NCBI GenBank assembly: GCA_017628025.1
Contig: JAGBZX010000006.1
Span: 3,433 to 67,432, forward strand
Direction of reading: 5' to 3'
Length of the DNA: 64,000 nucleotides
Source: Kiritimatiellia bacterium
GTDB lineage: Bacteria; Verrucomicrobiota; Kiritimatiellia; RFP12; UBA1067
The first letter of the stretch is position 1. The number at the start of each line of letters is the position of its first letter. Below, one piece after another: positions 45,675 through 63,073 of this stretch. The notes under the pieces are model-generated. The model was not told where the DNA came from and did no database searches. It saw only the letters and a program-made list of their open reading frames with translations. The position numbers and the translations under genes were made by a program.

Positions 45675-45687
45675 TTCAATGCCCTCC

Positions 45688-47391
45688 TTAAATGCGACGG
45701 GGAGTTTCTATTCCTAGCAATGCTAGGCCAGTGCCGAGAACGCGCGCAAATAACGCACAAAGTGAAAGCCTAGCAATCTTGACGCTTTCCTCACTCTTAA
45801 GAATTGGAGAGTTTTGATAAAAGCTAGAATAAAGCTGTGCAAGTTGAAAAAGATAATCAGCCAATAACGAAGGCTTATATGCCTCTGCTGCTCTAACGAC
45901 AACGTTAGGAAATTCTAGTAACTGCAACGCAAGTCGCTTCTCAGAAGGCTGAGCTACTGCAAACGTGTTAGTAAGAGAGCTCTCTTCCACTTCTGCCTTA
46001 TCCATTAGCGAACAAACTCTAGCATAAGCATATTGCAAATACGGCCCAGAATTACCCTCAAGAGCTAGAGCCTTATCCCAATCAAAGTCGATTGCTGTGG
46101 CAGGGTCATGAGAAAGATCTGCATATTTAACTGCTCCATAGCCGATTTGCTCAGCAAGTTTTTCTGTATCAGCAAGATTTTCTATACTACCAGCATTTCT
46201 ATTTGAAACGATTTCTAGCGCGCGGCGTTTAGCCTCTGCAAGCAAATCATCGAGGCGTATAAGATTACCCTCGCGAGTAGAAATAGCCTTACCTTGGAAA
46301 GACATTAGCCCAAATGGCACATGCACAAGCTTTACATCAGCAAAGCCCGTTTTTGCTGCTATAGAGAAGAATTGTCTAAAGTGTAGCTTTTGCCTATCAT
46401 CAGTAACATAAATTATACGCTCTGGATTGTATTCTGCCACACGGCTTTCTACGCAAGCTAAATCACTAGTAGTATAATTATATCCGCCATCTGACTTTCT
46501 TACTATCGCTACTCCTAGCTTCTCTTCTGCCAAATCTACAATTAATGCCCCTTCACTTTCTTTGGCCAAACCCACTTTAAGAAGTTTTTCAACTACACCA
46601 GGCATCATTGAATTATAAAAAGATTCGCCGCGGTACGTGTCAAACTTAACGCCGAGCTTGGCGTACATGCGCTCAAACTCGCCAATAGAGATATCTATAA
46701 AGCGTTTCCAGAGTTCAGTGTTGGCCTCGTCGCCCTGTTGCAACTTAACGAGTTCCGCTCGGCAGGCATCCTTCCACAGACCATCTTCTTCTTTGGCTTT
46801 TGCTGCAGAAAGAACATAGCACTTTTCGAGATTTGCTACTGTAAGATTTTCTCTTTCTTCGTCGGTTAAACATTCGCGATAACCCTTAATAAGAATGCCA
46901 AACTGCGTCCCCCAGTCTCCTAGGTGATTATCTGCAATAACTTCATAACCAAGCGAGCGAAAAATCCTATCAATCGCACAACCAATTACAGTTGAACGGA
47001 TATGACCAATATGCATCTGCTTTGCGGCATTGGGAGAAGAGTAGTCTATAACTATTTTTTTACCTGCCCCAATCGCTGGAATAAGACAAGACTTAGAATA
47101 ACAAAGTTCTCTAAGCCTTCCTGAAAGCCATTGTGAGCCTACTGTGAGATTTAAAAACCCAGGACCAGCAACTTCAACCTTCTCAAATACTTTTTCGTCT
47201 TTAAGCTGTTCTGCCACGTCAGAGCCTACCTGACGAGGATTTAGCTTATTCATCTTTGCATACTTAAGAGCATCATTACATTGATAATCGCCAAACTTTG
47301 CATCTGTAGCTGGAACTACGCGAACCCATGAAAAATCAACACCTGGATAAGCACGCTGAAATGCAGACTGAATTATTTCGTCTAGACTCAT
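45688..47391 (-). CDS. argS: arginine--tRNA ligase
   Basis: 567 aa with a class I HIGH motif (PNAAKQMHIGH) and C-terminal DALR anticodon-binding domain. Confidence 0.95.
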   Translation of the reverse strand: MSLDEIIQSAFQRAYPGVDFSWVRVVPATDAKFGDYQCNDALKYAKMNKLNPRQVGSDVAEQLKDEKVFEKVEVAGPGFLNLTVGSQWLSGRLRELCYSKSCLIPAIGAGKKIVIDYSSPNAAKQMHIGHIRSTVIGCAIDRIFRSLGYEVIADNHLGDWGTQFGILIKGYRECLTDEERENLTVANLEKCYVLSAAKAKEEDGLWKDACRAELVKLQQGDEANTELWKRFIDISIGEFERMYAKLGVKFDTYRGESFYNSMMPGVVEKLLKVGLAKESEGALIVDLAEEKLGVAIVRKSDGGYNYTTSDLACVESRVAEYNPERIIYVTDDRQKLHFRQFFSIAAKTGFADVKLVHVPFGLMSFQGKAISTREGNLIRLDDLLAEAKRRALEIVSNRNAGSIENLADTEKLAEQIGYGAVKYADLSHDPATAIDFDWDKALALEGNSGPYLQYAYARVCSLMDKAEVEESSLTNTFAVAQPSEKRLALQLLEFPNVVVRAAEAYKPSLLADYLFQLAQLYSSFYQNSPILKSEESVKIARLSLCALFARVLGTGLALLGIETPRRI

Positions 47392-47427
47392 AACTTTAAG
47401 GCTCCCTATCTTAAAAAATTTTATTGT

Positions 47428-47436
47428 ATTATATCA
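47428..47436 (-). promoter_or_regulatory. extended -10 element TGATATAAT upstream of argS
   Basis: The minus strand reads TTTTGATATAATAC, 36 nt upstream of the argS ATG with AGGGAG between. Confidence 0.5.
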
Positions 47437-47444
47437 AAATTAAG

Positions 47445-47588
47445 CTACTTTTGCGAAGTATCTTCATTTTTAACAGGAGAATGGGTATCTTTTTTAATGC
47501 TAGATTGACGAATTTCTTTAATGATTCGTCTTAAGCGTGCTAGTTCCATCTCTCTTGGGCCGCGCCGCTCGTATGTTCCATCAGCCAT
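47445..47588 (-). CDS. possible small basic protein (47 aa)
   Basis: MADGTYERRGPREMELARLRRIIKEIRQSSIKKDTHSPVKNEDTSQK. The ATG lies 1 nt after the radical-SAM gene stop (TAAAATG). No clear ribosome-binding site and no recognisable family. Confidence 0.25.
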   Translation of the reverse strand: MADGTYERRGPREMELARLRRIIKEIRQSSIKKDTHSPVKNEDTSQK

Positions 47589-47589
47589 T

Positions 47590-49122
47590 TTAGAAGAAAA
47601 GATCTCTTTGCCCGCGTGAAGTAGCTTCGTACTGCTTCTCAACAGCTGGATAAAACTTAGGTAGCCACTCTTTGATTTCAGCAAGTTCTTTTTTAATGAG
47701 CTCATCTCCAATTTTGCGAGTTTCTTCACTAGCAAAATCATCAAGCCACTCCCTAAACGTAAGAACTGCATTAATCTTACAGAATTTACCTTCGCGCCCA
47801 GTTTTCAAAGCGTCCATTATGCAGCCACCAGTGCGACCACATCTGTAGCCAGCGGTGCAAAAACTAGTAATTGTGCCGCGTGAGGCTAAATAACGAACCA
47901 TCTCATCAATTGAACGAGAATCGCCCAACATAAATTGCTGGCGTTCCTTATCCTGCTCTGACTCATGAGCAAAATCGCTATACCCTTTTATTGCGATATT
48001 TGATGAGCAATCAAGCTGTGTCATTCCGTAATCTAGAACTCGATTGCGACTCTCTGCCGATTCTCTAGCCGTCACTATAATACCAGTATAAGGAACTGCT
48101 AGACGAGCTATCACAATAATTCTAGCAAATGTCTCGTCATCTATTAACCAAGGCGAACGCTCAGGAACATCTGTCCCCGAGGCTGGCTCAAGGCGCGGGA
48201 AGGAAAGCGTATGAGGGCCAATATTAAACCATCTCTCCAAATCTCTGGCATGCATCACTGTCGCAAGAAGCTCGTAGCGCCAATCGCAAAGCCCATAGAG
48301 AACACCAAAGCCTACGTCATCAACTCCCGCCTCTAAACAGCGATGAAAACATGTAACCCGCCAATCATAATCGCCTTTGACGCTCCACTTTGGATGCATC
48401 GACTCATAAAGTTTGCGATTATAAGTTTCTTGAAAAACTTGAAAAGTACCAATACCGACGCTTCTTAAAACTTTAAGATCTTCTATCGGCAATGGGGCAG
48501 CATTAACGTTTACTCTACGAATACCAACCTTGCATCCACTCTTTGGCGCTGGCACTTGTCTTGAATAACAATTTTCAATAGTCTCAGCAATGTATTTAGT
48601 AGATGTATCTGGATGCTCGCCATAAACAGCAATAACACGCTTATGACCTATTCTGCCAGCTAACACATCAAGCTCCTCATTGAGCTCATCCATCGTTAGC
48701 TTACGACGCACTTGTAATGAATTGCCTTCTCTAAATCCGCAGTATTTGCACCCATTTACACATAAGTTCGACATGTATAAAGGAGCAAAAACAACTATAC
48801 GATTATCATAAACTTTTTTCTTAATGCGCAATGCTGCCGCGCGCATTTCAGAGAAAAGCCCTTCGTCCTTAACTTGCATAAGAACTCCCACCTCTTCAGG
48901 TGATAGAGTTTCACAAGTTGATTCACTCTTTGCGATTATCTCGCGCACTCTTACTGGATCAACTTCACTTGAGTCAATCTGCGAGATAATCCTCTGAATC
49001 TCGGCGTCGTCAATAAAGTGACGACCGCCGGGAAGGAATTTGTTTATCTCGGAGCGGATGATGAAATTTGTACGATAATCATCCGCTCCGCTAAACTTGC
49101 GGATCTTTGAGCAGTCAGCCAT
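47590..49122 (-). CDS. radical SAM enzyme of the ThiH/HydG (tyrosine lyase) family
   Basis: 510 aa with a CVNGCKYCGF radical SAM cluster motif. Overall length and a Cys-containing C-terminal domain (SFCTAGYRCGRTGGC...FCKINAVLTF) resemble HydG more than ThiH. Confidence 0.75.
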   Translation of the reverse strand: MADCSKIRKFSGADDYRTNFIIRSEINKFLPGGRHFIDDAEIQRIISQIDSSEVDPVRVREIIAKSESTCETLSPEEVGVLMQVKDEGLFSEMRAAALRIKKKVYDNRIVVFAPLYMSNLCVNGCKYCGFREGNSLQVRRKLTMDELNEELDVLAGRIGHKRVIAVYGEHPDTSTKYIAETIENCYSRQVPAPKSGCKVGIRRVNVNAAPLPIEDLKVLRSVGIGTFQVFQETYNRKLYESMHPKWSVKGDYDWRVTCFHRCLEAGVDDVGFGVLYGLCDWRYELLATVMHARDLERWFNIGPHTLSFPRLEPASGTDVPERSPWLIDDETFARIIVIARLAVPYTGIIVTARESAESRNRVLDYGMTQLDCSSNIAIKGYSDFAHESEQDKERQQFMLGDSRSIDEMVRYLASRGTITSFCTAGYRCGRTGGCIMDALKTGREGKFCKINAVLTFREWLDDFASEETRKIGDELIKKELAEIKEWLPKFYPAVEKQYEATSRGQRDLFF

Positions 49123-50681: not shown

Positions 50682-52502
50682 TTAGCCAATAACTGCGAGC
50701 GTGTCGCCCGTTGCAACCTTATCGGTGGCATTTACTGTAATAGTAACAGTACCATCGCAAGTAGCCGTAACAGGCGTCTCCATCTTCATAACGTCCATAA
50801 CGAGAATTTCGTCACCCTTTGAAACTCTCTGGCCATTGGTAGCTGTAACGCGAAGGATTGTTCCAGGAACTGGGGCTTTGATTTCTTCGCCACCAGCAGG
50901 AGCTGCTGCCGCCGCAGGAGCGGCCTTAAGACCAGCCTCAGCCTTGAAGGCAACTTCCTTGCCATTGACAACTGCCTTATCGCCCTTAATTTCAACGCCA
51001 TAAGCCTTGCCGTTAATCGTAACAGTAACAGCACCGCCCTTAGCAGCTGCAGGCTTTTCTTCTTCTGCGAAACGGCAGCCCATTGGAGCCTTTGAAGGAT
51101 CCTTAAGGAAGAGAATGCCCTTTTCAAGGCAAGAAGCTGCGATAAAGATATTCTCGTCGGTGACAGGAAGTCCAGCATCTTCAAGCATCTTCTTAGCAAC
51201 TGCGCCGCCCTTCTTAGGGTCAGCGTCGTTCATCTCAAGAACCGTCTTCGTGGTAGGCTCGCTGTATGCTTTATTAAGATCACTTGAAGCCATAAATTCA
51301 GAAGCCTTCTTAACGATCTCTGGGTCTGGTGGAACAGGAGTCTTGCCAAAGTAGCCAAGAACCATCTTCGCATAACCAGGGGCAAACTTCTTGAACTTGC
51401 CGAACATGACGTTCTGAATAGCCTGTTGAGCATAGAACTGGGAGACAGGAGTTACAGAAGTGCCGAAGCCGCCAAGACGGACACAATCGTACATTTCTGC
51501 AATCATGTCATCATACTTATCCATCATATTGTTGTCACGAAGCATTTGAGTATTGGCGGTAAGAGCACCACCAGGCATCGGGCTCCAAACAATCTGAGGA
51601 TTGACGTTCATAGCTTCTGGCGGGAGGAAGTATTTCTTCATCGCGTTCTTGAAGCTATCCTCAGCCTTCTTGACCTTGTTGATATCAAAGTCGAAACCGA
51701 AATCTGGATCGCCATCAAGGCAGTGCCACATCGTAATGATGTCGGGCTGGCAAGTTCCGCCGGACATCGGCGCCATCGAAAGGTCGATACCATCAGCGCC
51801 GCCCTGAAGAGCCGCCACATAGCAAGCAACACCATTACCGGCCGTCTCGTGACTGTGGAACTGAATGTGGATATCATTACCAAGAAGCTGACGAGCAAGC
51901 TTCATCGTATTGTAAACGGTAGCAGGCGTCGCGGTACCAGAAGCATCCTTAAAGCAGACGCGATCGAAAGGAATACCAGCGTCCATAATGAGTTTCAAGC
52001 GATCGCGATAGAACTCAGGCGTGTGCGTACCCTGATTGTCAATTCCAGGAGGAAGGCCCATCATCGTGACGGTAACTTCGTGGTTAAGACCAGCGTCATG
52101 AATACACTGGCCAGACCACTTGAGGTTATTGACGTCATTTAAAGCATCAAAGTTACGAATTGAGCTCATGCCATGCTTCTTGAACATATCAGCATGAAGC
52201 TTAATCATATCAGAACTCTGAGACTCAAGCCCTACGACGTTAACACCGCGAGAGAGCGTCTGAAGGTCTGCTTCAGGAGCTGCCTTACGGAAAGCGTCCA
52301 TTACATCGAAAGCGTCTTCTTGGCAGTAGAAATAGCAGCTCTGGAAACGCGCACCGCCACCAGCCTCAAACCAGCGGATACCAGCGTCATAAGCCTCCTC
52401 AACGCATGGGAGGAAATCTTTGGAGAGAACGCGCGCACCGACAACACTCTGGAAACCGTCGCGGAACGCAGTGAGCATGAACTTAACGTTTTTCTTAGCC
52501 AT
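50682..52502 (-). CDS. oadA: oxaloacetate decarboxylase alpha subunit (carboxyltransferase plus biotinyl domain)
   Basis: 606 aa with an N-terminal HMGL-like carboxyltransferase TIM barrel, an Ala/Pro linker and a C-terminal biotinyl domain with VMKMET. Confidence 0.88.
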   Translation of the reverse strand: MAKKNVKFMLTAFRDGFQSVVGARVLSKDFLPCVEEAYDAGIRWFEAGGGARFQSCYFYCQEDAFDVMDAFRKAAPEADLQTLSRGVNVVGLESQSSDMIKLHADMFKKHGMSSIRNFDALNDVNNLKWSGQCIHDAGLNHEVTVTMMGLPPGIDNQGTHTPEFYRDRLKLIMDAGIPFDRVCFKDASGTATPATVYNTMKLARQLLGNDIHIQFHSHETAGNGVACYVAALQGGADGIDLSMAPMSGGTCQPDIITMWHCLDGDPDFGFDFDINKVKKAEDSFKNAMKKYFLPPEAMNVNPQIVWSPMPGGALTANTQMLRDNNMMDKYDDMIAEMYDCVRLGGFGTSVTPVSQFYAQQAIQNVMFGKFKKFAPGYAKMVLGYFGKTPVPPDPEIVKKASEFMASSDLNKAYSEPTTKTVLEMNDADPKKGGAVAKKMLEDAGLPVTDENIFIAASCLEKGILFLKDPSKAPMGCRFAEEEKPAAAKGGAVTVTINGKAYGVEIKGDKAVVNGKEVAFKAEAGLKAAPAAAAAPAGGEEIKAPVPGTILRVTATNGQRVSKGDEILVMDVMKMETPVTATCDGTVTITVNATDKVATGDTLAVIG

Positions 52503-52538
52503 TTTTATTTTTCCTTTATTATAAAACCAACAACAAAC

Positions 52539-52763
52539 TTAAATACCCTTCATCGCAACGGCGATAGCAACAGCGATGTTTTCGTCATCGTTTGACGCAA
52601 CCTTCGCAGGAGACTTCTTAGGCGCATCCTTAGGGAAAATTGAGTCAAAAGGCACAAGCGCCTTACAAGCTACGTTTGTAACTAAAATAAGAATGCCTAA
52701 AAAGAGATAAACAATACCCATGCCCGCAATGAGCAACACCAATCCCTGTCCTAACTCTGCCAT
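52539..52763 (-). CDS. oadG: oxaloacetate decarboxylase gamma subunit
   Basis: 74 aa with one N-terminal TM and an OadG-like tail (AVAIAVAM). Position immediately upstream of oadA. Confidence 0.7.
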   Translation of the reverse strand: MAELGQGLVLLIAGMGIVYLFLGILILVTNVACKALVPFDSIFPKDAPKKSPAKVASNDDENIAVAIAVAMKGI

Positions 52764-52802
52764 TTTTTAACTTCCTTAATATTTAATTTTAAAATCAAAC
52801 CC

Positions 52803-53246
52803 TTACTCATCAATATTGATAAGTTCAAGCGTATCGAAATTTATTTTACGGTAATAACAATTTCTGGGTTCTCCTGCCTTGTTCTTTGTATGGCAAATAC
52901 CACCGCGGCAAGGACGCACTAAATATAAAAGCGAATTTTGCTCGCAGTTGACATACGCCTCAATAAGGTCGAATGTTTCACCAGAAGTTTCACCCTTGAA
53001 CCAAATTTTATTGCGGCTGGTGGACCAAAGGATAAGTTTGCGCTTAGCAAAAGACTCTTTCATTGCGTGTTCATTCGTGTACGCAACGAGTATAACTTCT
53101 TTGGTATCAATATTTTGAATAGCTACTGGAATTACGCCTGGATCAATCTCGACACCAGATGCGCGCGAATCTGCGACTTGTTTGCCAACTTTCTCGAGTT
53201 TTGTAAAATCGAGAGTTAAATTCAACGATTCTTCAAGTTGCCCCAT
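52803..53246 (-). CDS. hisI: phosphoribosyl-AMP cyclohydrolase (monofunctional)
   Basis: 147 aa. WSTSRNKIWFKGETSGETFDLIEAYVNCEQNSLLYLVRPCRGGICHT matches the HisI core. Confidence 0.85.
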   Translation of the reverse strand: MGQLEESLNLTLDFTKLEKVGKQVADSRASGVEIDPGVIPVAIQNIDTKEVILVAYTNEHAMKESFAKRKLILWSTSRNKIWFKGETSGETFDLIEAYVNCEQNSLLYLVRPCRGGICHTKNKAGEPRNCYYRKINFDTLELINIDE

Positions 53247-53277
53247 AATTTTACCTAATTTGTGTTAATATTTGCGT

Positions 53278-53286
53278 ATTATATCA
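53278..53286 (-). promoter_or_regulatory. extended -10 element TGATATAAT upstream of hisI-oadGAB
   Basis: The minus strand reads TTTTTGATATAATAC, 31 nt upstream of the hisI ATG. Confidence 0.5.
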
Positions 53287-53359
53287 AAAAATATGTTCAT
53301 AATCCAGCAAATTTCACGCGGATTTTGATTCCAAAAATTGTACAATTAAATGAGTCAAA

Positions 53360-53750
53360 TCGGAAAGGCAAGGTGGCGAGGTGGCAAGGTGAAGAGAGGA
53401 TAGTTTGAGTGAGGGAGTTAGGGAGTGCAAGGTGAAGACTAAAGGTGAAGGTGAACAATGGAGAGTTAAAAGTTTGAGTTCGAGAGCGGAATAGTAAAAA
53501 AACGTACATTCTCTAACTCGAAACTCCAACTAATCTTAATCTTGTTTTTATTTCTTTGCTTTCGCTTCTTGGAGATTTGGAGTTTTGGAGGGATTGCGCA
53601 AGGCGGTAATGAAATCCACTCTTCACCTTCGCCTTCACCTCAAACTTTCTAAACCTCCTTAACCTAACTCAAGCTTTGCGTAAATCTCCAATTCTACTCT
53701 CCAACTCCCTCACTTCATCACTCATAACTCTCAACTCATAACTAGCCCCT
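53360..53750. repeat. approximately 390-bp imperfect, strand-asymmetric palindrome built from short words (GGTGAAG, GAGTT, GAGGGAG, AAAGTTTGAG)
   Basis: The plus strand is purine-rich and nearly C-free at 53365-53500 and pyrimidine-rich at 53608-53745. The reverse complement of the right arm is roughly collinear with the left arm (shared gtgagggagtt, aaagtttgag, ggtgaagg blocks). A nested inner pair lies at 53508-53530 / 53568-53592 around an AT-rich centre near 53550. Confidence 0.75.
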
Positions 53751-53761
53751 GAGCATCCTGT

Positions 53762-54718
53762 CTATTTCCAGCTGACCGTGCCGCTCTCGGAGATGCTCAC
53801 TTCGCGGAAGAAGTCAATGAGGTAGCTCTTGGCGCAGTGTCCATATGGATAGCCCGCAAACACAGGGCAGTCGAGCGTCTGCGCATAGACCGGCAGAAAG
53901 GCATCGAGCGCCTTGCGCTCCTCGCCTGCGTGGCGGAAATCCGCGAACACGACTGCGGCGGCATCCCTCAGGTAGCCGCTGTCGCGCATCGTCTCGAGGA
54001 ACTTCTTCAGGTCAGCCGCCGGATAGTGCGCCGTGCACTCGATGAACACCACCCTTCCCGCCGCAGAAGGCGCGAACTTCGTGGCGGTGGCGAGCCTGTG
54101 CACCCTTTCGAGGTGTCCGCCCATTGGCAGACCCTTCGCCGCGCCCGCCTTGAGCACCTTCACCTTCACTGGCTTGAGTGGCGCGCCTTCGAGCATCGCC
54201 CTGAACCACTTGGCGGAGGCCGCGTCCCATTGCGAAAACGACGAGATCATCGACCCAGAATACGGATGCCCCGCCTTCTGCGAAAGCATCGTGTTCACGA
54301 TAAGCGTTATGTCGCTGAATCCGACGACGCGCATCTCGCGCGAACGAAGCTTCTCCCAGTCAATCTTGCCAATAAGGTCGATGGCGCCCGACCCGCCGCG
54401 TGCCATGACGATGATGTCCACCTCTGGATCCAGCCACATCTTCTCGAAGTCCTTCACGCGGTCCTCGGCCGCCGCCCGCTCCTTCACGCGCACGAAGTCG
54501 CCGAGCTTCACCTTGTACCCGGCCTCCTCGAGCATCTGCACGCCCCTGTCGAGCATCCGGCGCTCCGGCACCGACGCCGGCGCCAGGATTCCCACCGTCT
54601 TCACGTCCTCGGGGAACAGCCCCTTCACGGACGACAATCTTCTCGCGGCGGGCTTGTCCGCTCCCATCGCAGTGCAGCAAAGCACCGCCCCGTACACCAA
54701 ACCTATCAACTTGACCAC
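53762..54718 (-). CDS. LD-carboxypeptidase / MccF-like serine peptidase (S66), apparently with signal peptide
   Basis: 318 aa with VGILAPAS, nucleophile motif GFSDIT and GYPYGH. The GTG start (54716-54718, AGGGG 10 nt upstream) gives a hydrophobic N-terminus VKLIGLVYGAVLCCTAMGA. About 62% GC. Confidence 0.8.
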   Translation of the reverse strand: MVKLIGLVYGAVLCCTAMGADKPAARRLSSVKGLFPEDVKTVGILAPASVPERRMLDRGVQMLEEAGYKVKLGDFVRVKERAAAEDRVKDFEKMWLDPEVDIIVMARGGSGAIDLIGKIDWEKLRSREMRVVGFSDITLIVNTMLSQKAGHPYSGSMISSFSQWDAASAKWFRAMLEGAPLKPVKVKVLKAGAAKGLPMGGHLERVHRLATATKFAPSAAGRVVFIECTAHYPAADLKKFLETMRDSGYLRDAAAVVFADFRHAGEERKALDAFLPVYAQTLDCPVFAGYPYGHCAKSYLIDFFREVSISESGTVSWK

Positions 54719-54748
54719 TGACTACTGACCCCTAAGGACCATTAAGGA

Positions 54749-57700
54749 CTATCTCACCGTAAGAATGAATCCGCCGCGGTACCACTCTATTCCACCAAGT
54801 TCTCCGCCTGTATTTATCTTGCCTGACGAAACTCTCGATGCATAATCGCCGCCAGTCCAACCTTTGCCGTCGTTATGAGAAAGCGACATTACACGAATTT
54901 TAGTGTTATAGAAATAAAAATAAGAATCGGACGATTCAAAAATAATATCTTTAACTTTCATGATTGCGCCGTCGCCAAACGACGATCCATCGTTAATCAT
55001 GCGTACATAAGCGCCCGATCCAATAACAAGCGTCGCTTTTTTGTAAGCAACCCTTGGATCACCGTCTGCCACCATCGGCAGCTGAGTAAGCCCTGTGCCA
55101 TAATTTGTATAGATGTACTGCCTGCCCTCGATGTAGATCGTGCCACCGTGGTGGCCGTCGCCAGGGAGTTCCTTGTAGATTGTACCGCCATGTGTGCCGT
55201 CGTTGTCGTTGTTCTGCGTTGTGATCGTAAGCGACGCAGAAGGAGACCAATCCGCCCCGGTGCGCTGGTAGATGGCGATTCTCCCCGCTCCGCCCTTCCA
55301 GCAGGTAAGCGGCTTTGTCGAAGATGTGGGGGCCGGTGCGGCAGTCACAAGGCCAGAGCCCTTCAGTGTCCCGACCTTGAGGCAGATCGCGCCAGGGGCA
55401 CCACATGCATTTGTGCCGCGATGCGAGCGCACGTTTATCTCCCCGTCAACCGTGAGGTCGCCGACGACATCGAGATATACCGCTCCCGCGCCGCCGCTCG
55501 CTCCGCCGGCGCCAGGTAGTATCGGCTCAAAGATGGAGTCGTTGCACGGCACATAGGTGCTGTTATATGAAATCGTACTGCCGTGCCCGCCACCGTTGGT
55601 GTTGCCGGCATTGTTCTTGGTGTTGTTCTTCGGCCCATACTGCGACTCAAAGCCAAGGCCAGAGAGTGCAATCTTCGCCCCTGCATCAATAGCCATGTCA
55701 CCGCCTACGGTCATGTAGATCCTGTACGAGAAGGATTTGCCGTTCGACGCGTGTTTCATCTCAGAGCCGCTCTGCATCCAGACATTGCCGCCAACGGCAT
55801 TAGGAGTATTCATGGAGCTCAAGGTTGCCGTCGCGCCGTTGCACAGGACGAAGTCCCCCGACATCGAAATCGGATATGCGGAGGTCAATGCCGCCTTGCC
55901 GCCATCCGCACCACCAAGGGTAATCGAACGGACGTTCACGTTTGCCGTCGAGCCGACAGTCACAGTGACAGTGCCTGACGTGGGGGCGATATAGACCTCG
56001 TCGTTCTCGCCGGGGACCTCGCCCGTCGACCAGTTCTCGGCCGTTCCCCAGCTGCCGCTGCCAGGCGCGATCCACTCCACGATGTTGCAGCCGAAGTTCC
56101 AGTTCTTGGTGTTGCTGCCAGTGCCGGTAGCCTTCACCTCCGCGCCGCTCAAGGCGTCGCTGTCGCTCACGGTCACGTTGCGGACGCGCTGCCTTGCCGT
56201 AAGGGCGAGCGCCCACTGCTCGCCGGGAACCGTGCTTCGTAGGATGTGCGGGTCATTCCCGCGAGACTCGATGTTGCACTGCGCGAACCCGAACTCCTCG
56301 CCGGCGCCGAAGGCGAACGTAATCGCGTCTGGAACAACGCAGTAGAACTTGTCCGCCACAAATCCGGTCGGGAGCGTCAAAGTGCCGCCCGCCTTCTCGA
56401 CATAGACGTTCTCCGCCGTCCCCGAGGCAATGTCAAGTACAGTGTCGCCGTCGCCAAACACCCCGATCCTGTTGCCGCCGTAAACTATCGTTCCGGCCGA
56501 ATAGAAGGCGTTCGAAACGAGGAGACTGGAGCCGCTGAGCGTAATTGTCGCCCCCGCCTCGTTCGTAATGGAACACATGTAATAGTCCGCGCCCTCGAAC
56601 ACGGGGTAGTTGGCAAGCCCGGACGGGATCCGCAGGCGATCGCCGTTACGGGGCGCGATGCCGACATCCCAGTTGGCGGGATTGTTCCAGCGCGTGTCAG
56701 AGCCGCCGGTCCACGTAAACAACGTGCCTTCGGGTATCTCGCCCGAAATGAAGCCCCAGTTGTCGTTGCCGCCGAGATTCGCTGAGCGAAGCGCGGTCGG
56801 CGAAACGCCGGTGGCAAGGCTGTTGCTGACCGCAACGTACTCGAAGTTCGCGAGATCTGCATACGGGCCCACGATGTTCATTGTCCACGTGCCGTTCGGC
56901 GTATCAGGCTGGAGGATAAGAGGCTTCTCCTCCGTTCCGCGAAACTCGACGGACCCGTTCTCGAGGTTGCGAATCTCTGAGCCCGCGGCAAACGAAATCG
57001 TCGCGCCCGGCGAGTTCGTGCAGAAGATGCTGTATGCCTTTACAAGCCCCTCGACGGAGAACGAGCCGTCTTCGCCGGGCATTATCTCGATCGCGCCGCC
57101 ACCCGCGACAGTGTGGAAGTCGCCATTGCCCGTCACACTTATGCCCTTCTCGACCTTGAGCGTGACGCCCGATGGGATTTCAAGGCGAGCGTAGTTCTTC
57201 ACTGAGACCTTGCCGAACGGCACATCTATGTCGACTATGGCGTCGTCGAGGCGGCACGCCATTCCCGCATAGGCGGAAATAGAGTCATAGCCCTGGGCAA
57301 TCAACTCGCCCCTGTCCTCGGCGTCGTTCGCGTTCTCGACATAGATCGATCCAACAGAATGATAGCCGTTGTATTGCTCGCTCAGCACGGGATTGCGCCC
57401 GGCGCGCATTAGCCCGGTGTACGCCGAAATGTCGTTCGCGACATACTGCCTCACGGCTATTCGCCCACCGCCGCCGTGCGAATAGTTCGTTGCCCTGCCG
57501 GCGCATGCGTTGATTTCGCCATACCCGACAAGCGTTCCGCACTCAATCCAGACGCTTCCGCCAGCAGGAGAGGAATGGGTAGTGTTGCCGCCGTTTGCGG
57601 AGACAGATCCGTTCAGCGTAAAGGTCCCGTTCGTGGCCGAGATGTGCACTACGCCGCCGCCGTAGTTGTAGGAGCCGCTGTATCCGCCGCCGCTTCCAGG

Positions 57701-60532
57701 CTCGTCTGGGCGGCGGATGGACCCAAAGCACTTCCTCGGGGAAATGGCGTATGTCGACGACGAATAGCCGCCCTGCGACGTGCCGCCATACCCCGCTCCC
57801 ATGTATGCAGTACCTTCAGCAGGCATTGGCCCCATGCCGTAGTAGTAGCCCTTCGCAGTCACGTTGATCGACGCGCCCTCTTCTATCGTCACGTCCCCAC
57901 CGACTTCGAGGTTAAGCGCATACTTCTTTGCGTTGTCGGCGGTGCCGTGGCATGTGTGCGTAAGCGTTGCCCCCTCGCGCAGGATGACGTCGCCGGAGAC
58001 TTTGTTCGTGGCGAGGCCGCAGGCGAACTCAATCGCAATTGAGCCCTCGCCGGGGCCGAAGCCGACTTCAAGCCCTGCAAGTTCAAGCGCATTCGTCACG
58101 TTGACCGTCACACTCACGCCTTCTGGCGGGCGCGTGACTACGACTGCGCTTCCGGGAGAGGGAAGTATGCCGCCCTGCCAGTAGGTCTCGTCGTAGAAAT
58201 CGACTATGCTGGAGGTCTCGCACGTGAAAATGCAGTCGGAGGCGCCGCCGAAACGCGCGCTGAACGAAGCGGGCGAATCGACCTCGAACGAAAACTCGTC
58301 TTCAAAGATGTCGCCGACGAGCGAGATATCGCCTTCCCACTGCGTGAAGCGGCCCTGTGCGGTAGGAACCGCCGTCACCGTCAGCATAGCGCCGTCATCT
58401 TGCCAGCCATTGCCGGTAACAGATCCGAGAAACGCGTCGGAGGAAACAACGGAGATGTACGACTGCGTCTTCCAGTGCCACGAGAGGACACCGAAGCCCG
58501 AGGGCGTCACAATGCAGGTGGTGTCGTCCTCGCCGGAGATTGGCGTTGTCGAATCACGCACGACGACGCCATCCATCGAAAGCGTCCATCCGGTGCAGAC
58601 CGCCCTTCTCCCTTCCGAGATGACGACTGTGGCGGGCGCGGTGTACGTCTTCGGCGTCCCCGCGACAACGTCATCGTCATATCCGTACGCAATCTCGCCG
58701 GAGCCGTATTCAACACCCGCGTCAGTCACCACCTGGACGACGGTCGAAAGCGCCGTTGAGCCGTCTACCCTTATGAAGTTTGCGTTGTTCATCGAGTCGT
58801 ATTCGGCCTTGACCCACTTGGCAGACCGTGGGATGCGCGTAATGCGGGCTTCGTCTACCTGAAGAGGCATCGCCTCCCCGCCAAACTTGAACGCAGCAGA
58901 CGCCTTCCCTATCGAATCATATGGTTTAGAGATGGTGTTTGTGCTTTTGCTTGCACCGTTAACATACGCCGCTATAGTATTGTTGGCGGCAACATAGACC
59001 AGATAGTTCCAGTTGGCGACAAAGCTCGGACAGCTGTCTGCATTAAGGGCGGCGGAACTGCTGGCCTTGCTGTTGCCATAGTATAGCTTCATGTAGTTGA
59101 CTCTTGTGTCGTATATCTGCTCGACGTAACCGCATCTCAGGGATGCGCTCCCGTAGTTGGCAAACTTGCGCATGATGCTGTTGTAGGACCCTACGCCATC
59201 CGGCTTCTTGAACCAGCAGGAGATGGTCAGGCTGTCGGGGAGCCCGTTCGTCGGGTGGATCATGTAGTCGTCGTAGTTTGCGCCTTCAAGCCCGCGGGTG
59301 AGGTGCAATGCATTGCCGCAGAACGGGGAGTTTGTCAGGGTCGTCACGGAATACCCGGTCGTGGAGTTGTAGATGTTCGTCACGTTCCAGCCGTGCCCCG
59401 TCTCGTCCGCGACACCCGTCTCGGGGTCGTAGGAATTCATGTGCCAGACGCCAACGTATTCCGACCAGACCTCTGTCGAAGCAGGCCTCGCGGCAGCGAC
59501 GCCGGAACCCCAGAACATGTAAAACTTCGTGTCCGTTCCGGAAATCTCGGGCATCTTCACCCAGACGAGCGAGGTGCCGTCCGTATCCCAAAGCTCGATG
59601 TCGCAGGCAAGACGGTTGAGGCCGTCTGCGTCAGTGGCGAAAAAGACGTCCGCGCCGCCCGCAAGGCACTTCGAATAGCTGAATGCGGTTATCGTCTCGG
59701 GCGAAACCCTCACGAGCACAGGCAACCTCTTCTGCACTTCATCGCCGCCCGCATAGCCCGCAACGGTAAGCTCCGTCCTGAATCCGGCCTCGGGCATCGT
59801 GGTTGTCGGGTACACGCTCGATGTCCTCGGGCCCGCCTTGAAAGGGCGGTCGCCGAGGCTGCCGTAGAAGACTTCATTCTCAGTGTCAAACATGCCGACC
59901 GCGCCGTCTGAATCGCGAATGGCCGGCACAAAGTTGCGGTAGTAGGAGCTGTCGGAGCTCTTTTGTATAGTAAAGCCGTAGATCATGAGCGCCGCCTTGA
60001 TATACGAGGCAGACCCCCCATTTGGTCCGCTCATCCACGCGATGTAGATGTTGTTTGTCGAAGTATACGTCTTTGCAGACAGAGTGGAAAGACCCAGGGA
60101 TGTCGAGCCGCCTACGGAAAACGTGCCGTTGTTGCACTTCCATATCATGCGGCTGTGCAGATTGCGGCCAGTGCCTATTCCAATGCTGGTGGAAGATCCG
60201 GTGGTGTAGTTGCCCAATTTGTTGTAATGAAAGCGCATCACGTTCCATTTCTCGCCATTCTGCCTTGTCGTGATGGCAACCGGGTTTACGTTGTGCCCAT
60301 CGTCAGCGCCTCCGAAAAGGGCCTGTTTAGGGTCGTTGCTCAGAAGCCGCATGTCGGCCGAGACTATAAGCCCGGACTGCGCCTTGATACCCGTGTCGAT
60401 GTATTGATGGCCGTTCGACTCGATCCACTCAAGCTGGGTATAGCCAGTTGGCAGGTCCGCAAACGCGGCAAAACCGAGAAAAACAAACACACCAGCAATG
60501 ACTGCCGCCATCTTTCCAATAAGACTCTTCAT
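54749..60532 (-). CDS. giant secreted multi-domain surface protein (lectin-like jelly-roll, DUF2341-like, LamG, B-repeat-like, Gly-rich beta-helix modules)
   Basis: 1927 aa, ATG start, signal peptide MKSLIGKMAAVIAGVFVFLGFAAFA. Domains by aa position: 26-235 YTQLEWIESNGHQYIDTG ... FVPAIR..GMFD..FYG module; 250-345 DUF2341-like (LPVLVRVS ... DIELWDTDGTSLVWVKMP ... FYMFWGS); 355-590 LamG-like (LTISCWFK ... RSAKWVKAEYDS). There are two 185-200 aa Gly-rich modules ending in GGGGRIAVRQY and GGAGRIAIYQR. Confidence 0.85.
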   Translation of the reverse strand: MKSLIGKMAAVIAGVFVFLGFAAFADLPTGYTQLEWIESNGHQYIDTGIKAQSGLIVSADMRLLSNDPKQALFGGADDGHNVNPVAITTRQNGEKWNVMRFHYNKLGNYTTGSSTSIGIGTGRNLHSRMIWKCNNGTFSVGGSTSLGLSTLSAKTYTSTNNIYIAWMSGPNGGSASYIKAALMIYGFTIQKSSDSSYYRNFVPAIRDSDGAVGMFDTENEVFYGSLGDRPFKAGPRTSSVYPTTTMPEAGFRTELTVAGYAGGDEVQKRLPVLVRVSPETITAFSYSKCLAGGADVFFATDADGLNRLACDIELWDTDGTSLVWVKMPEISGTDTKFYMFWGSGVAAARPASTEVWSEYVGVWHMNSYDPETGVADETGHGWNVTNIYNSTTGYSVTTLTNSPFCGNALHLTRGLEGANYDDYMIHPTNGLPDSLTISCWFKKPDGVGSYNSIMRKFANYGSASLRCGYVEQIYDTRVNYMKLYYGNSKASSSAALNADSCPSFVANWNYLVYVAANNTIAAYVNGASKSTNTISKPYDSIGKASAAFKFGGEAMPLQVDEARITRIPRSAKWVKAEYDSMNNANFIRVDGSTALSTVVQVVTDAGVEYGSGEIAYGYDDDVVAGTPKTYTAPATVVISEGRRAVCTGWTLSMDGVVVRDSTTPISGEDDTTCIVTPSGFGVLSWHWKTQSYISVVSSDAFLGSVTGNGWQDDGAMLTVTAVPTAQGRFTQWEGDISLVGDIFEDEFSFEVDSPASFSARFGGASDCIFTCETSSIVDFYDETYWQGGILPSPGSAVVVTRPPEGVSVTVNVTNALELAGLEVGFGPGEGSIAIEFACGLATNKVSGDVILREGATLTHTCHGTADNAKKYALNLEVGGDVTIEEGASINVTAKGYYYGMGPMPAEGTAYMGAGYGGTSQGGYSSSTYAISPRKCFGSIRRPDEPGSGGGYSGSYNYGGGVVHISATNGTFTLNGSVSANGGNTTHSSPAGGSVWIECGTLVGYGEINACAGRATNYSHGGGGRIAVRQYVANDISAYTGLMRAGRNPVLSEQYNGYHSVGSIYVENANDAEDRGELIAQGYDSISAYAGMACRLDDAIVDIDVPFGKVSVKNYARLEIPSGVTLKVEKGISVTGNGDFHTVAGGGAIEIMPGEDGSFSVEGLVKAYSIFCTNSPGATISFAAGSEIRNLENGSVEFRGTEEKPLILQPDTPNGTWTMNIVGPYADLANFEYVAVSNSLATGVSPTALRSANLGGNDNWGFISGEIPEGTLFTWTGGSDTRWNNPANWDVGIAPRNGDRLRIPSGLANYPVFEGADYYMCSITNEAGATITLSGSSLLVSNAFYSAGTIVYGGNRIGVFGDGDTVLDIASGTAENVYVEKAGGTLTLPTGFVADKFYCVVPDAITFAFGAGEEFGFAQCNIESRGNDPHILRSTVPGEQWALALTARQRVRNVTVSDSDALSGAEVKATGTGSNTKNWNFGCNIVEWIAPGSGSWGTAENWSTGEVPGENDEVYIAPTSGTVTVTVGSTANVNVRSITLGGADGGKAALTSAYPISMSGDFVLCNGATATLSSMNTPNAVGGNVWMQSGSEMKHASNGKSFSYRIYMTVGGDMAIDAGAKIALSGLGFESQYGPKNNTKNNAGNTNGGGHGSTISYNSTYVPCNDSIFEPILPGAGGASGGAGAVYLDVVGDLTVDGEINVRSHRGTNACGAPGAICLKVGTLKGSGLVTAAPAPTSSTKPLTCWKGGAGRIAIYQRTGADWSPSASLTITTQNNDNDGTHGGTIYKELPGDGHHGGTIYIEGRQYIYTNYGTGLTQLPMVADGDPRVAYKKATLVIGSGAYVRMINDGSSFGDGAIMKVKDIIFESSDSYFYFYNTKIRVMSLSHNDGKGWTGGDYASRVSSGKINTGGELGGIEWYRGGFILTVR

Positions 60533-60569
60533 GCCTACACCATGCCTCCTATCGACTATATTTTAAGCA

Positions 60570-60598
60570 ATTATATACAATTTTGCGCAGGAAGTCAA
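60570..60598 (-). promoter_or_regulatory. consensus sigma70 promoter TTGACT-N17-TATAAT for the 1927-aa gene
   Basis: The minus strand has TTGACT at 60593-60598 and TATAAT at 60570-60575 with a 17-nt spacer, in an AT-rich patch of the 127-nt intergenic region. GGAGG lies downstream. Confidence 0.6.
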
Positions 60599-60659
60599 CC
60601 AAAAAGCCAGAAAAGGCAGTGTCGCAAACCGCCCAACTACCTAACCACCAGGCTGCGAC

Positions 60660-62963
60660 TTACTTAAGAAATATCACGAGCCCGGGAGCGGCGGTGGCAG
60701 TGAACTTGCCGTCCTCGCCCTCCGCCACCCTGTAGCGCTTGGCAAACGTCAGCGCGCCGTCGGGGTCGAAATCGGTCACGAGCCGCCCGACTCCATAGAC
60801 GGAGAACACGCCTGTGTACGTGCCGCCGAGAAGCGTCAGTCTGCCGCGGACGGCGAACGGAGCCGCGACCGTGCGCCCCGCGGCGCGCAGGGTAAGGGAA
60901 TCTCCCGCCGATATGGTGTAGCTCCCGGAATCGACGTCCTCGTACAGCCAGAGGCTGTCGCCGGCGACGTGGGCGGCCATTGCATCGGCAAAAGCCGGAT
61001 AGAAGACGTTCCCTATGCGCGCGGCGCTTCCGCTTTCCGCCACAATGCTGCGCCCGTCGTCCCATTCGTACTTCGAGTAGCCGCTCGCTATGAACTCGTC
61101 GGGGGCTACGCCGTGTATTCCGCCGGAGATGTATATGTTGCCGTACTTCCCGCTTGTCGAGGTCTTTTCACTCGCGTGGCTCCTGTTTGAATACGTGCCG
61201 GTGTTTTTCATCGAACCCAACTTGAAATCACCCCCCGAGATGTACATCTTGGCAGTTGACGAGCCGCTCGACTGCGAAATCATTGAAAGAATCGTCGACC
61301 CGAAGAATTGCCCGCCTGTGACGTAGAACTGCGTATTATGGCTTCTCTCAACCGAAGCCGACGAGACGCACGACATCTTGCAGTTCCAGAATTTGCCCCC
61401 GTATATCCGCCCCGTCGCCTCCCCGTTATATTTGGTGCCTGAGCCGCTGTGCCCGCTCCATGAGCAGATGTCGCAGTTGAAGAACGTCGGGACCTTCTCC
61501 GGATCCTGCCCGATATGCCATGTGGATGAATAGTTGTAGGCTTCCACAAGCGTATTTCGGAACGTCCCGCCGCGAATTTCGATAAGCCCGCTCCATATGG
61601 GGAGAATCATGGAGTATTCGAATTTCCCGCCCTCGACGATGATGTTCGCCGCAGGCGAGACGCCGCGGGCTTCGTGATATGAGGCGGAAAGGTAGACATT
61701 GTAGAAGTTGCCGTCCTGAATGGTAAGGGAGCCGCCGACCGTGTTGGCGTTTACCCTGAATAGACCGCCATTGGAAACAAATATCCCCTTCTCCCCGCAG
61801 GAAAGCGTTATCTCCCTTGCCCCAATGTCTATGGTCTGGGAATCGGCTATGTAAAGGTCGCGCAGGAGGGTGATCGTGGCCGCCGACGAAGTGGGGATTG
61901 CCGCCACGGCGTCAGCAAAAGTGGCATACGTCTCGTTGCCCACTGCAAACGGGTTGGAAGAGTCGTCGAAGTTGAGAAGCCCCTCAGCGTTGACTATCGA
62001 GCCGCCCTTGAGCGCACCGCCGCTGCAGTCCGCGTCAAACGTGCCGCCAAGGACGTTGATCACGGCAGTGGAGCCTTTGTTGTATGCTTCGGTGGAGACA
62101 TCGCCAAAGAACTTCGACTTGGCGAAAGTGCCGCCGTGCATGTTTATGGTCGAAATGGAATTATTGCCCATGGTGCCGCTGTCCGTCGGATAGCACGTCG
62201 ACTCGAAGAAAACGCCGTCAAAGGAGCCGCCGTAGATGTCTATTGTAGGCAGATGCTTGGGCCCCGAGCCTGTCGTGACCGTCGTAAAGAACTTTCCTCC
62301 TGAATACGTACCGGAATAGACCTTGATGTATCCATACTGATTCCCAGAAGACGGGTTTTTGTTTGCGAACTGGGCGCGCGACTCGAACGTGCAGTCGGTG
62401 CAAGCAGGGCCAGTCGGCGAGCCGTCCGCCCCCATCGTGAGAGTGCAGTCGTAGTTCTGCGAAAGGAACGTGCACCGATCAAACGCCCCTTGCGATACTT
62501 CCGTCATTGCCGCGTTGAAGTCGCTAAACGACGAGTCTGCGAAGCTGCCGCCGGAGATGTAGATCCTTGCGCTATTGTAGGTGCTGCAGGTGACTTTTGA
62601 ATAGTCTCCGCCTTCCACATACAGGCGCGTCGAGCTGCCGTCCAGCTTCATGCTCATTCCGGAGAATTTCCCGCTGCGCACGCGAAGCTGGCCCGTCTTC
62701 AAAAGGGTAAAACCCTTCCCAGAAACACTGAAAGCACCGCCTTCCAGATATATGACCTTGGAGTTGTTCGTGATGTTGATGTCGAGGGCGCAGTCGCCGA
62801 GAAGCTCGATAGTCTGGCCGGTCGTGGCGGCGGTGAACGCGGCGGGGAGCGTATCGTACTGGGCCCCCGTCTCAGATATCCTCGCTACATCGGCGGCATG
62901 CGCCAGGGGCGACACGCCGACAAAGAGAATCCCGACAACGAACCATACCGCCGCATTGCGCAT
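60660..62963 (-). CDS. secreted beta-helix repeat protein with three-fold modular organisation and GGxF rungs
   Basis: Start set to ATG 62961-62963 (MRNAAVWFVVGILFVGVSPLAHA signal peptide, GGTAGGA upstream); ORF-track start 62990 is TTG. It has at least 14 h-GG-x-(F/Y) motifs and three modules opening with IG..xY.TFADA.AA....TI.LL.D-like segments. Confidence 0.8.
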   Translation of the reverse strand: MRNAAVWFVVGILFVGVSPLAHAADVARISETGAQYDTLPAAFTAATTGQTIELLGDCALDINITNNSKVIYLEGGAFSVSGKGFTLLKTGQLRVRSGKFSGMSMKLDGSSTRLYVEGGDYSKVTCSTYNSARIYISGGSFADSSFSDFNAAMTEVSQGAFDRCTFLSQNYDCTLTMGADGSPTGPACTDCTFESRAQFANKNPSSGNQYGYIKVYSGTYSGGKFFTTVTTGSGPKHLPTIDIYGGSFDGVFFESTCYPTDSGTMGNNSISTINMHGGTFAKSKFFGDVSTEAYNKGSTAVINVLGGTFDADCSGGALKGGSIVNAEGLLNFDDSSNPFAVGNETYATFADAVAAIPTSSAATITLLRDLYIADSQTIDIGAREITLSCGEKGIFVSNGGLFRVNANTVGGSLTIQDGNFYNVYLSASYHEARGVSPAANIIVEGGKFEYSMILPIWSGLIEIRGGTFRNTLVEAYNYSSTWHIGQDPEKVPTFFNCDICSWSGHSGSGTKYNGEATGRIYGGKFWNCKMSCVSSASVERSHNTQFYVTGGQFFGSTILSMISQSSGSSTAKMYISGGDFKLGSMKNTGTYSNRSHASEKTSTSGKYGNIYISGGIHGVAPDEFIASGYSKYEWDDGRSIVAESGSAARIGNVFYPAFADAMAAHVAGDSLWLYEDVDSGSYTISAGDSLTLRAAGRTVAAPFAVRGRLTLLGGTYTGVFSVYGVGRLVTDFDPDGALTFAKRYRVAEGEDGKFTATAAPGLVIFLK

Positions 62964-63045
62964 TTTCCTACCTGCTGCTTGCATAATCAAATCCTCTCCG
63001 CTAACTATTTATCGCATCAAAAGAATACCTCCTTTGAATCATTGT

Positions 63046-63073
63046 ATTTTACCAAAAGTTCCCGAAATGTCAA
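63046..63073 (-). promoter_or_regulatory. sigma70-type promoter TTGACA-N16-TAAAAT for the 767-aa gene
   Basis: The minus strand has TTGACA at 63068-63073 and TAAAAT at 63046-63051, with GGAGG downstream. The -35 overlaps one arm of a 7-bp inverted repeat (TGTCAAC / GTTGACA at 63068-63074 and 63094-63100). Confidence 0.5.

Follow-up and report, generated by a model that had tools for sequence, protein, structure and literature searches.

The long β-helix stalk is a feature of the type V autotransporter adhesins, such as Ag43, pertactin, Hap and EspC, and of the two-partner secretion (TPS) exoproteins, such as EtpA and HMW1. The giant secreted proteins of the Kiritimatiellia and other members of the Planctomycetes-Verrucomicrobia-Chlamydiae (PVC) group are recognised by a pair of domains, DUF2341 (PF10102) and LamG (PF13385), and form a family without demonstrated function, and the jelly-roll sandwich of the LamG, pentraxin and concanavalin A (ConA)-like proteins is represented by agrin LG3 (1pz7), PTX3 (8pvq) and CBM66 (4b1m). 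Several signals are found at the extreme C-terminus of exported proteins, namely PEP-CTERM with its exosortase, the C-terminal domain (CTD) of the type IX secretion system (T9SS), LPXTG and the β-signal of outer membrane proteins (OMPs), and in the PilC/PilY1 proteins of type 4a pili a disordered tail of ~12 residues docks a large Sec-exported adhesin on a minor pilin by β-strand augmentation (Denic et al. 2026, bioRxiv 10.64898/2026.09.18.752573). Here, we compare with these systems a 1927-amino-acid (aa) protein, P0001, encoded in a 64,000-nucleotide stretch of a Kiritimatiellia bacterium genome (assembly GCA_017628025.1, contig JAGBZX010000006.1, positions 3,433 to 67,432; the whole stretch is called the window below), and read it, with fair rather than high confidence, as a surface protein with several lectin modules and no enzymatic activity, exported by the Sec route in an uncultured bacterium of the ruminant gut.

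On this reading P0001 is of a familiar kind, lectin modules on a β-helix stalk, and leaves that basic picture unchanged. It appears to have the same domain pair as the DUF2341-LamG giants, most of which also have the same short C-terminal tail, and it matches more than 100 of them with E values of 1e-36 to 6e-76 over 5-41% of the query (mostly 16-30%); the full architecture of N-terminal module (N-module), DUF2341-LamG, B-repeat and duplicated Gly-rich β-helix is common to only 19 proteins. The type V and TPS proteins, which have a long β-helix stalk of the kind predicted for P0001 and are the top, if non-significant, fold neighbours, differ in that P0001 has neither a barrel translocator nor a TPS domain, carries its lectin modules N-terminal to the stalk and ends in an eight-residue tail instead of a barrel. 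The gene is an uninterrupted open reading frame (ORF), stop codon included, on the minus strand, as the ORF list and translation bear out, and the order of modules proposed in the initial annotation, from signal peptide and N-module through DUF2341, LamG and B-repeat to a long putative β-helix, holds. The features of the gene are as follows.

60570..60598, minus strand: promoter-like TTGACT-17-TATAAT, 11 of 12 positions, a consensus match only
54749..60532, minus strand: ORF of P0001, with 17 full-length homologues at 33-87% identity
60458..60532, minus strand: signal peptide, aa 1-25, with a probable cleavage between AFA and D read from the translation, the N-module consensus LPxGY beginning right after it
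59819..60457, minus strand: N-module, aa 26-238, a LamG/pentraxin-like jelly roll (family profile E 1.8e-68, profile positions 1-212)
59483..59653, minus strand: DUF2341 (PF10102), aa 294-350 (Pfam, 24.7 bits against a cut-off of 23.4)
58811..59272, minus strand: LamG-like Laminin_G_3 (PF13385), aa 421-574 (Pfam, 27.1 bits against a cut-off of 27.6)
58250..58426, minus strand: InlB-type B-repeat Flg_new_2 (PF18998), aa 703-761 (Pfam, 22.7 bits against a cut-off of 23.6)
57254..58189, minus strand: Gly-rich β-helix module A, aa 782-1093, with a degenerate entry motif and GGGGRIAV (BLASTP, self-comparison, hhalign and structural model)
56618..56716, minus strand: entry motif W-T-G...W..P.NW...P...D..I, aa 1273-1305, at the head of the middle β-helix module (sequence, self-comparison and hhalign)
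55085..56041, minus strand: Gly-rich β-helix module C, aa 1498-1816, a paralogue of A, with GGAGRIAIY (hhalign)
54752..54775, minus strand: tag GGFILTVR-COOH at the very C-terminus, following the lineage motif G-[FLM]-x-[LIV]-x-[IV]-[RK] (C-termini of own-genome proteins and homologues)

Judged by eye from the translation, the N-terminus is a Sec-type signal sequence, MKSLIGKMAAVIAGVFVFLGFAAFA, followed by DLP, and an AGGAGG lies 12 nucleotides (nt) upstream of the ATG, downstream of the promoter-like site. The DUF2341 match covers 57 of the 84 model positions and is above the gathering score, if marginally, and the Laminin_G_3 match is just under its cut-off, spanning positions 4-150 of the 151 in the model (E 5e-6); PF13385 is also precomputed on close homologues of P0001 and PF18998 on most of the full-length ones. 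The DUF2341-like and LamG-like regions that had been read from the translation at aa 250-345 and 355-590 thus have marginal matches at aa 294-350 and 421-574, as has the second of two proposed B-repeats (aa 703-761); the first of these (CTGWTL, aa ~592-692) has neither a Pfam match nor similarity to the second. No single adhesin or autotransporter family accounts for the whole protein in Pfam and NCBIfam, the scan of the complete sequence against NCBIfam returning no family, and a search of PDB sequences with the P0001 family profile found no solved relative.

The N-module begins with the signature LPxGYTQLEYIESTGTQYIDTG and ends with LVRDFxPC..xxGxxGLYDxVxxxFYxNxGTGxF, separated by a variable middle, and in P0001, where both signatures are present, it reads LPTGYTQLEWIESNGHQYIDTG ... 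RNFVPAIRDSDGAVGMFDTENEVFYGSLGDRPF. The initial annotation could not assign aa 26-235 to a named family, and in this it was right: a Pfam domain covers the module in none of 10 members tested, PHROG gives no match for any of four sequences tested, NCBIfam has no match for the P0001 N-module, and no PDB sequence matches its profile. The module is nevertheless no orphan. Whether it defines a family of its own, a question that had been left to a homologue search with this segment alone, is answered by an exhaustive HMMER search with aa 26-240 of P0001, clustered at 50% identity, which returned a very large family. At E<=1e-3 it comprises 6,306 cluster representatives and at the stricter E<=1e-10 still 1,311; many are matched in several stretches, the maximum in one protein being 13. 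A hidden Markov model built from the best 150 picks out 554 full-length copies, spread over 154 proteins, some of which have as many as 10 in tandem.

The AlphaFold model of the N-module (46 sequences) is all β, with a predicted local distance difference test (pLDDT) of 77.7 and a predicted template modelling score (pTM) of 0.82, and fits the earlier guess of a jelly-roll-like fold. Its fold neighbours in the PDB are agrin LG3, pentraxins, laminin LG, CBM66 and galectins (probability ~1.0, TM 0.45-0.55); these matches are weak, the best having E 3.4e-3, yet all are of one kind. Among the viral models of BFVD, uncharacterised gut Siphoviridae proteins match best (E 2e-14, TM 0.74), followed by phage ConA-like/LamG proteins. 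To judge from the model, the N-module is a new sequence family within the ConA-like/LamG superfamily: it shares the jelly-roll sandwich of the LamG and pentraxin proteins, and differs from them in having no sequence similarity to the Pfam members, a signature of its own, an occurrence in tandem arrays and a presence in phage virion proteins. Even the LamG domain of P0001 itself bears no sequence relation to it (hhalign probability 0.05). The N- and C-terminal strands are conserved and confidently modelled, whereas the middle is variable and of low pLDDT, a pattern of conserved binding framework and variable loops that is that of a receptor-binding domain.

The family is spread across gut bacteria and their viruses. 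The N-module consensus was found at 51 loci in gut and rumen metagenome-assembled genomes (MAGs), which carry the labels Bacilli, Clostridia, Christensenella, Butyricicoccus, Alphaproteobacteria/Candidatus Enterousia and Candidatus Onthoplasma. In the genome of P0001 itself the full module occurs three times, in P0001, in a resident paralogue on contig C12 and in a 1,572-aa protein on C43, and a short fragment is matched on C17. Viral contigs of IMG/VR contain 223 matching stretches, and in the three contigs inspected the neighbours of the N-module gene encode portal, minor-head and collagen-like tail-fibre proteins. In two of the three (L060:5995-7368 and L070:5995-7344) the module is fused to a Hoc-like head-decoration domain (phrog_10993), the fusion in L060 directly following a collagen-like tail-fibre gene and that in L070 lying close to a portal gene; given this fusion beside structural genes, the module is apparently displayed on virions. 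Three further viral copies (L058:6001-6597, L080:6001-6579 and L122:6001-6576) have one in-frame stop each (TGA, TAA and TAG, respectively), and could be pseudogenes, sequencing errors or recoded stops. A tblastn search with the module and its consensus against the deposited phage genomes of INPHARED gave no match. On a more speculative reading, the N-module may be a plug-in receptor-binding unit, probably for glycans, with a constant jelly-roll frame and a hypervariable middle, that is swapped and multiplied among bacteria of the gut, from at least four phyla, and the phages of these bacteria.

The other end of P0001 is a stalk built in part by internal duplication. The initial annotation had picked out two paralogous segments, at 57443-58000 and 55262-55861, and both the positions and the paralogy prove sound. 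A BLASTP comparison of the two gives 27% identity over 242 columns (E 4e-11), a windowed self-comparison of P0001 widens the paralogy to aa 785-1085 against aa 1501-1807, and hhalign aligns aa 782-1093 with aa 1498-1816 over 290 columns with a probability of 100% and E 2.8e-42. As the profiles used for hhalign were cut from an alignment of the 17 full-length homologues, the match between modules A and C is one between profiles of all of these, and the duplication is therefore old and common to the whole family. Each paralogue had been thought to follow an entry motif of its own; the motif at aa 1486-1517 does head module C, and the one at aa 1273-1305 heads instead a separate middle module, matching aa 1483-1595 weakly (probability 68%, E 4.6e-5). 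Module A is headed by a degenerate version at aa 782-803, in which W785 and P791 align with W1501 and P1507. Several paralogues in the same genome have the same entry motif directly after the signal peptide, and it looks like the usual start of a β-helix in this lineage.

An AlphaFold2 model of aa 780-1927 (25 aligned sequences) has a mean pLDDT of 86.5 and consists of nearly nothing but short strands; its pTM of 0.55 is as expected for a long multi-module rod. A Foldseek search with the whole model against the PDB gave nothing significant (best E 0.066, probability <=0.2), the weak neighbours being nearly all β-helix proteins, above all right-handed ones (Ag43, IgA1 protease, EspC, pertactin, HxuA, PL6 lyases, tailspikes and TPS exoproteins), and Pfam has no match at E<=10 to the three β-helix modules or to the last ~1,150 residues. 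The earlier reading of ~1150 aa of β-helix is consistent with this confident model of short β-strands and its weak, parallel β-helix neighbours, and the C-terminal 1,148 aa are best modelled as belonging to the β-helix class, without an assignable family.

These weak neighbours include PL6 alginate lyases, a β-1,3-glucanase and phage tailspikes, and the stalk could instead be an enzyme (a polysaccharide lyase, glycosidase or tailspike-like depolymerase) to which the lectin modules would be targeting carbohydrate-binding modules, making P0001 a degradative exoenzyme. A motif C-x-x-S-I-x-x-P...G-S-G-G is kept in both Gly-rich modules, module C has invariant His, Cys and Glu residues, and fucose-utilisation, sialate esterase-like and GH28-like genes in the window speak of a glycan-degrading lifestyle. 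We nonetheless consider an enzyme unlikely: P0001 matches no catalytic family in Pfam or NCBIfam, with the β-helix part searched in Pfam down to E<=10, the fold matches have probabilities of <=0.2 with autotransporter adhesin passengers ranking level with the lyases, and the GAGHGG of the family is GAGYGG in P0001, that His not being conserved.

How a non-enzymatic surface protein of this size would be held at the cell is a question to which the initial annotation, which saw no recognisable anchor, gave no answer. Known anchor models indeed do not match: P0001 has no match in Pfam or NCBIfam to LPXTG, to PEP-CTERM with its PEP motif, transmembrane helix and basic cluster (PF07589/TIGR02595) or to the folded T9SS CTD of ~80 aa (PF18962/TIGR04183), nor to a 12-stranded autotransporter barrel (PF03797) or TPS domain at E<=0.1, the last 416 aa being likewise without a barrel or TPS match at E<=10. 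What had been overlooked is the conserved C-terminal tag, GGFILTVR-COOH. The short-tag class is defined by the exact C-terminus, G, S or A followed by ~5 mostly hydrophobic residues and R or K, together with a signal peptide and with an excess of the tag over chance in the genome. The tag is shared by all stalk paralogues in the genome, by P0002, the neighbouring gene product described below, and by several unrelated proteins, with endings such as GFSLVIR, GFQVMIR, GLVIFLK and GFILTVR. The strict motif ends 21 ORFs genome-wide against 2.0 expected from its internal frequency, and 17 of the 21 encode proteins of 428-1937 aa; with a relaxed motif the number of genes is again 21, against an average of 4.45 in controls with truncated C-termini, and ~15 of these 21 genes encode large proteins of the tag family, of which 13 begin with a signal-peptide-like sequence. 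The strict tag is present on 54 of 120 metagenomic DUF2341/LamG homologues, and the majority of the rest have a less strict version of it. It often directly follows a LamG domain and a short linker, and as it comes after different last domains it is modular, and not the end of one particular fold.

The tag resembles PEP-CTERM, the T9SS CTD, LPXTG and the OMP β-signal in its place at the extreme C-terminus of exported proteins, and differs from them in its length of ~7-8 residues, with no PEP motif, transmembrane helix, folded CTD or terminal aromatic residue. As the genome also encodes seven canonical PEP-CTERM proteins and one exosortase, the short tag is a separate signal, and it is the likely answer to the question of anchoring. 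The PEP-CTERM proteins are of 186-216 aa, and six of them are in pairs on three short contigs (C21, C42 and C28; e.g. C21:1683-1751 and 1844-1912). So short a tail has its nearest precedent in the plug of PilC/PilY1, although this is an analogy only and P0001 has no PilY1 β-propeller. The genome has at least 16 prepilin-type genes, seven of which (N_methyl) are at positions 51100-59160 of G000:C29, ~3 kb from a tagged 862-aa stalk paralogue (45486-48074); the exosortase gene is on C29 too, at 851-1600. By analogy with PilC/PilY1 this prepilin cluster is a lead, not evidence, for docking of the tag on a pilin.

It is also conceivable, though improbable, that P0001 is released, or lies in a lattice or S-layer-like coat, and that the C-terminal motif is the last structural strand of a common C-terminal fold and no sorting or docking signal. 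One of the weak fold neighbours is RsaA, the S-layer protein of Caulobacter, and the ~100 residues before the tag are conserved too within the P0001 family. Such a shared fold is at odds with the tail following unrelated last domains, as in homologues of ~1,280 aa that end in LamG and a short linker, in P0002 and in unrelated proteins on C3 and C34. Nor is the tail packed as a strand in the C-terminal model, where a small cap is followed by a loose end; this end is its least confident part, with model residues 1146-1148 below a pLDDT of 50 and the last block at 52.

The putative surface protein and its tag have a history that can be followed in base composition. Guanine-plus-cytosine (GC) content climbs from ~0.42 to ~0.60 in the window between roughly 53.7 and 63.2 kb, a 9.5-kb island in an assembly of 43% GC, and at third codon positions (GC3) P0001 has 0.72, against 0.24-0.50 for the other window genes sampled. 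The island and the parts of it discussed here are the following.

53762..62990, minus strand: high-GC island of three genes (GC 0.56-0.62, GC3 0.72-0.83), delimited by GC and GC3, with junctions repeated in two samples
53762-54718, minus strand: LD-carboxypeptidase S66, island gene, GC3 0.83
60660-62990, minus strand: P0002, a 776-aa tagged β-solenoid-like protein, island gene, GC3 0.74
54767..55070, minus strand: gene-conversion patch of ~300 nt and low GC, ~97% identical to the resident copy on G000:C2 (= P0010) and 47-72% to the high-GC relative

P0001 is 86-87% identical (86% in DNA) to proteins on contigs of uniformly 60-63% GC. One copy at 86% identity belongs to a 62% GC genome of the same genus in the Genome Taxonomy Database (GTDB), the ArgRS of which is only 80% identical to that of the window. 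In 30 genomes of the genus (loci L012-L041), GC at the ArgRS locus ranges from 42% to 67%, with ArgRS 71-80% identical, and the present genome is at the lower end of that range. The resident relatives of P0001 are quite different: the genome has at least 10 stalk paralogues, all of low GC3, among them a resident full-length copy that runs off the end of C12, continues at the start of C2 and shares only 52-67% identity with P0001. Over the 1.7 kb compared, the part on C2 is identical to the gene for P0010, which is on an ENA contig with 42% GC. Of the other genes, the S66 peptidase of the island is 74% identical to the copy in the high-GC genome, against 42% for a resident S66 on C26, whereas the gene at the right flank is native, at 83% identity to the low-GC relative and 54% to the high-GC one. 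The acquisition of P0001 by recent horizontal transfer, as part of an island originating in a GTDB congener of high GC, is thus well supported.

In a low-GC strain (L004:3844-15769) the two resident full-length paralogues P0014 and P0010, 53% and 58% identical to P0001, are encoded in tandem next to rpmH-yidC, and the family had therefore expanded by tandem duplication before the import. The present genome and G002 are low-GC outliers in the genus, and at 1.45 Mb and 71% completeness the present assembly is one of the smallest, which suggests that the GC content of the lineage has fallen recently. In the low-GC relative G002 an empty site corresponding to the island could not be demonstrated, synteny being different there. 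A prophage origin was considered and dropped, as the surroundings of the island have no phage genes and the window lacks a tRNA gene. Two other samples yielded contigs, of 46 kb and 71 kb, that match the window at 99.2-99.6% identity over 19 kb and contain both junctions, with P0002, P0001, the S66 peptidase, hisI, the oad genes, a radical SAM gene and ArgRS. Neither the left island junction nor the junction of the mosaic described next had an exact match in JGI metagenomes. Although GC changes abruptly at both ends of the island and close relatives occur in high-GC genomes from the same sample type, an assembly or binning chimera of two co-occurring species, in which P0001 would be foreign to the 43% GC genome, is largely refuted and very improbable, since assemblies of different strains from these two samples have the same order and both junctions, which excludes chimeric assembly as far as assemblies can, and since a 300-nt patch of resident low-GC sequence lies inside the high-GC gene without a long shared stretch at its 5' switch.

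This patch extends from ~322 to ~19 nt before the end of the P0001 gene, and the last ~127 codons have a GC3 of 0.44. Upstream of it the gene is 73-98% identical to the high-GC relative and ~60% to the resident copy. At the 5' switch point the parental sequences share just a dozen or so identical bases, too short a stretch for an assembler to jump, and the mosaic is therefore a recombinant molecule. The patch encodes the small domain immediately before the tag, and the final six residues of P0001 match neither parent, yet fit the tag. The imported gene may in this way have been fitted with the anchoring end of a resident.

P0002, directly upstream of P0001, has a promoter-like TTGACA-16-TAAAAT of its own at 63046-63073, and a poly-G tract is absent from the promoter-like sites of both genes. 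Its product is exported, has about ten GGxFxxxxF repeats and ends in the tag PGLVIFLK; it has no Pfam match at E<=10, and its matches among 40 relatives are weak and partial, with 27-51% identity over 39-392 residues. Positions 53360-53740 of the window, AT-rich and intergenic, lie at the left island edge and contain purine-rich direct repeats (four copies, GGCAAGGTGGCGAG-like) together with several imperfect inverted repeats of 13-25 nt, 72-94% complementary, with arms 150-280 nt apart; the whole resembles a long imperfect hairpin or a relic of some small element at this junction.

In the mechanism that we propose, the N-terminal end of P0001 would carry three binding-type modules (N-module, DUF2341 and LamG), followed by a spacer of at least one Ig-like B-repeat and by a stalk of ~1,150 residues, probably of β-helix type, with an old duplication of a Gly-rich module of ~310 residues and a different third module between the copies. 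A predicted free tail of ~8 residues, consisting of Gly, a short hydrophobic strand and a terminal Arg, and common to many otherwise unrelated exported proteins, would dock or sort P0001 at the cell envelope, probably as a β-strand added to a partner, and the stalk would hold the lectin head off the cell for binding a gut glycan or surface ligand. The present copy would have been imported in the 9.5-kb island from a high-GC congener, after which the 300 nt encoding the domain before the tail would have been overwritten by a resident paralogue.

The architecture, the duplication, the predicted fold classes, the size and spread of the N-module family, the enrichment of the tag and the island with its mosaic are what the data show. 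It is from the domain types that we infer an adhesin or glycan-binding function, and the surface location, the binding of a ligand and the role of the tag are likewise deduced. Several observations weigh against the account given here. All three Pfam matches in P0001 are at or just below their cut-offs, and the term β-helix is derived from the secondary structure and from the type of weak fold match obtained, the search with the whole model being non-significant. Conserved residues of the Gly-rich modules (e.g. H1650, C1663 and E1669) could mark an active site, and the tag could be merely a shared structural end. For the island, the nearest high-GC genome has the three island genes apart and P0002 is without a close homologue there. 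More tentative, and on balance doubtful, is the joint proposal in which the N-module is a new and huge ligand-binding family and the last ~100 residues with the eight-residue tail form a host-specific docking cassette.

The N-module matters beyond this protein, as a name, structure and ligand for it would annotate many 'hypothetical' surface and virion proteins. P0001 is a well-documented carrier of the short C-terminal tag of gut Kiritimatiellia, and hence a handle on it, and the island is a case of clean and recent gene flow within one genus between genomes ~20 GC points apart, useful for studies of dating and amelioration. The position of the patch before the tag suggests which part of such a protein must match the host, and, if the docking cassette is real, its overwriting would be a natural experiment indicating that the tail region must match the recipient's own sorting machinery.

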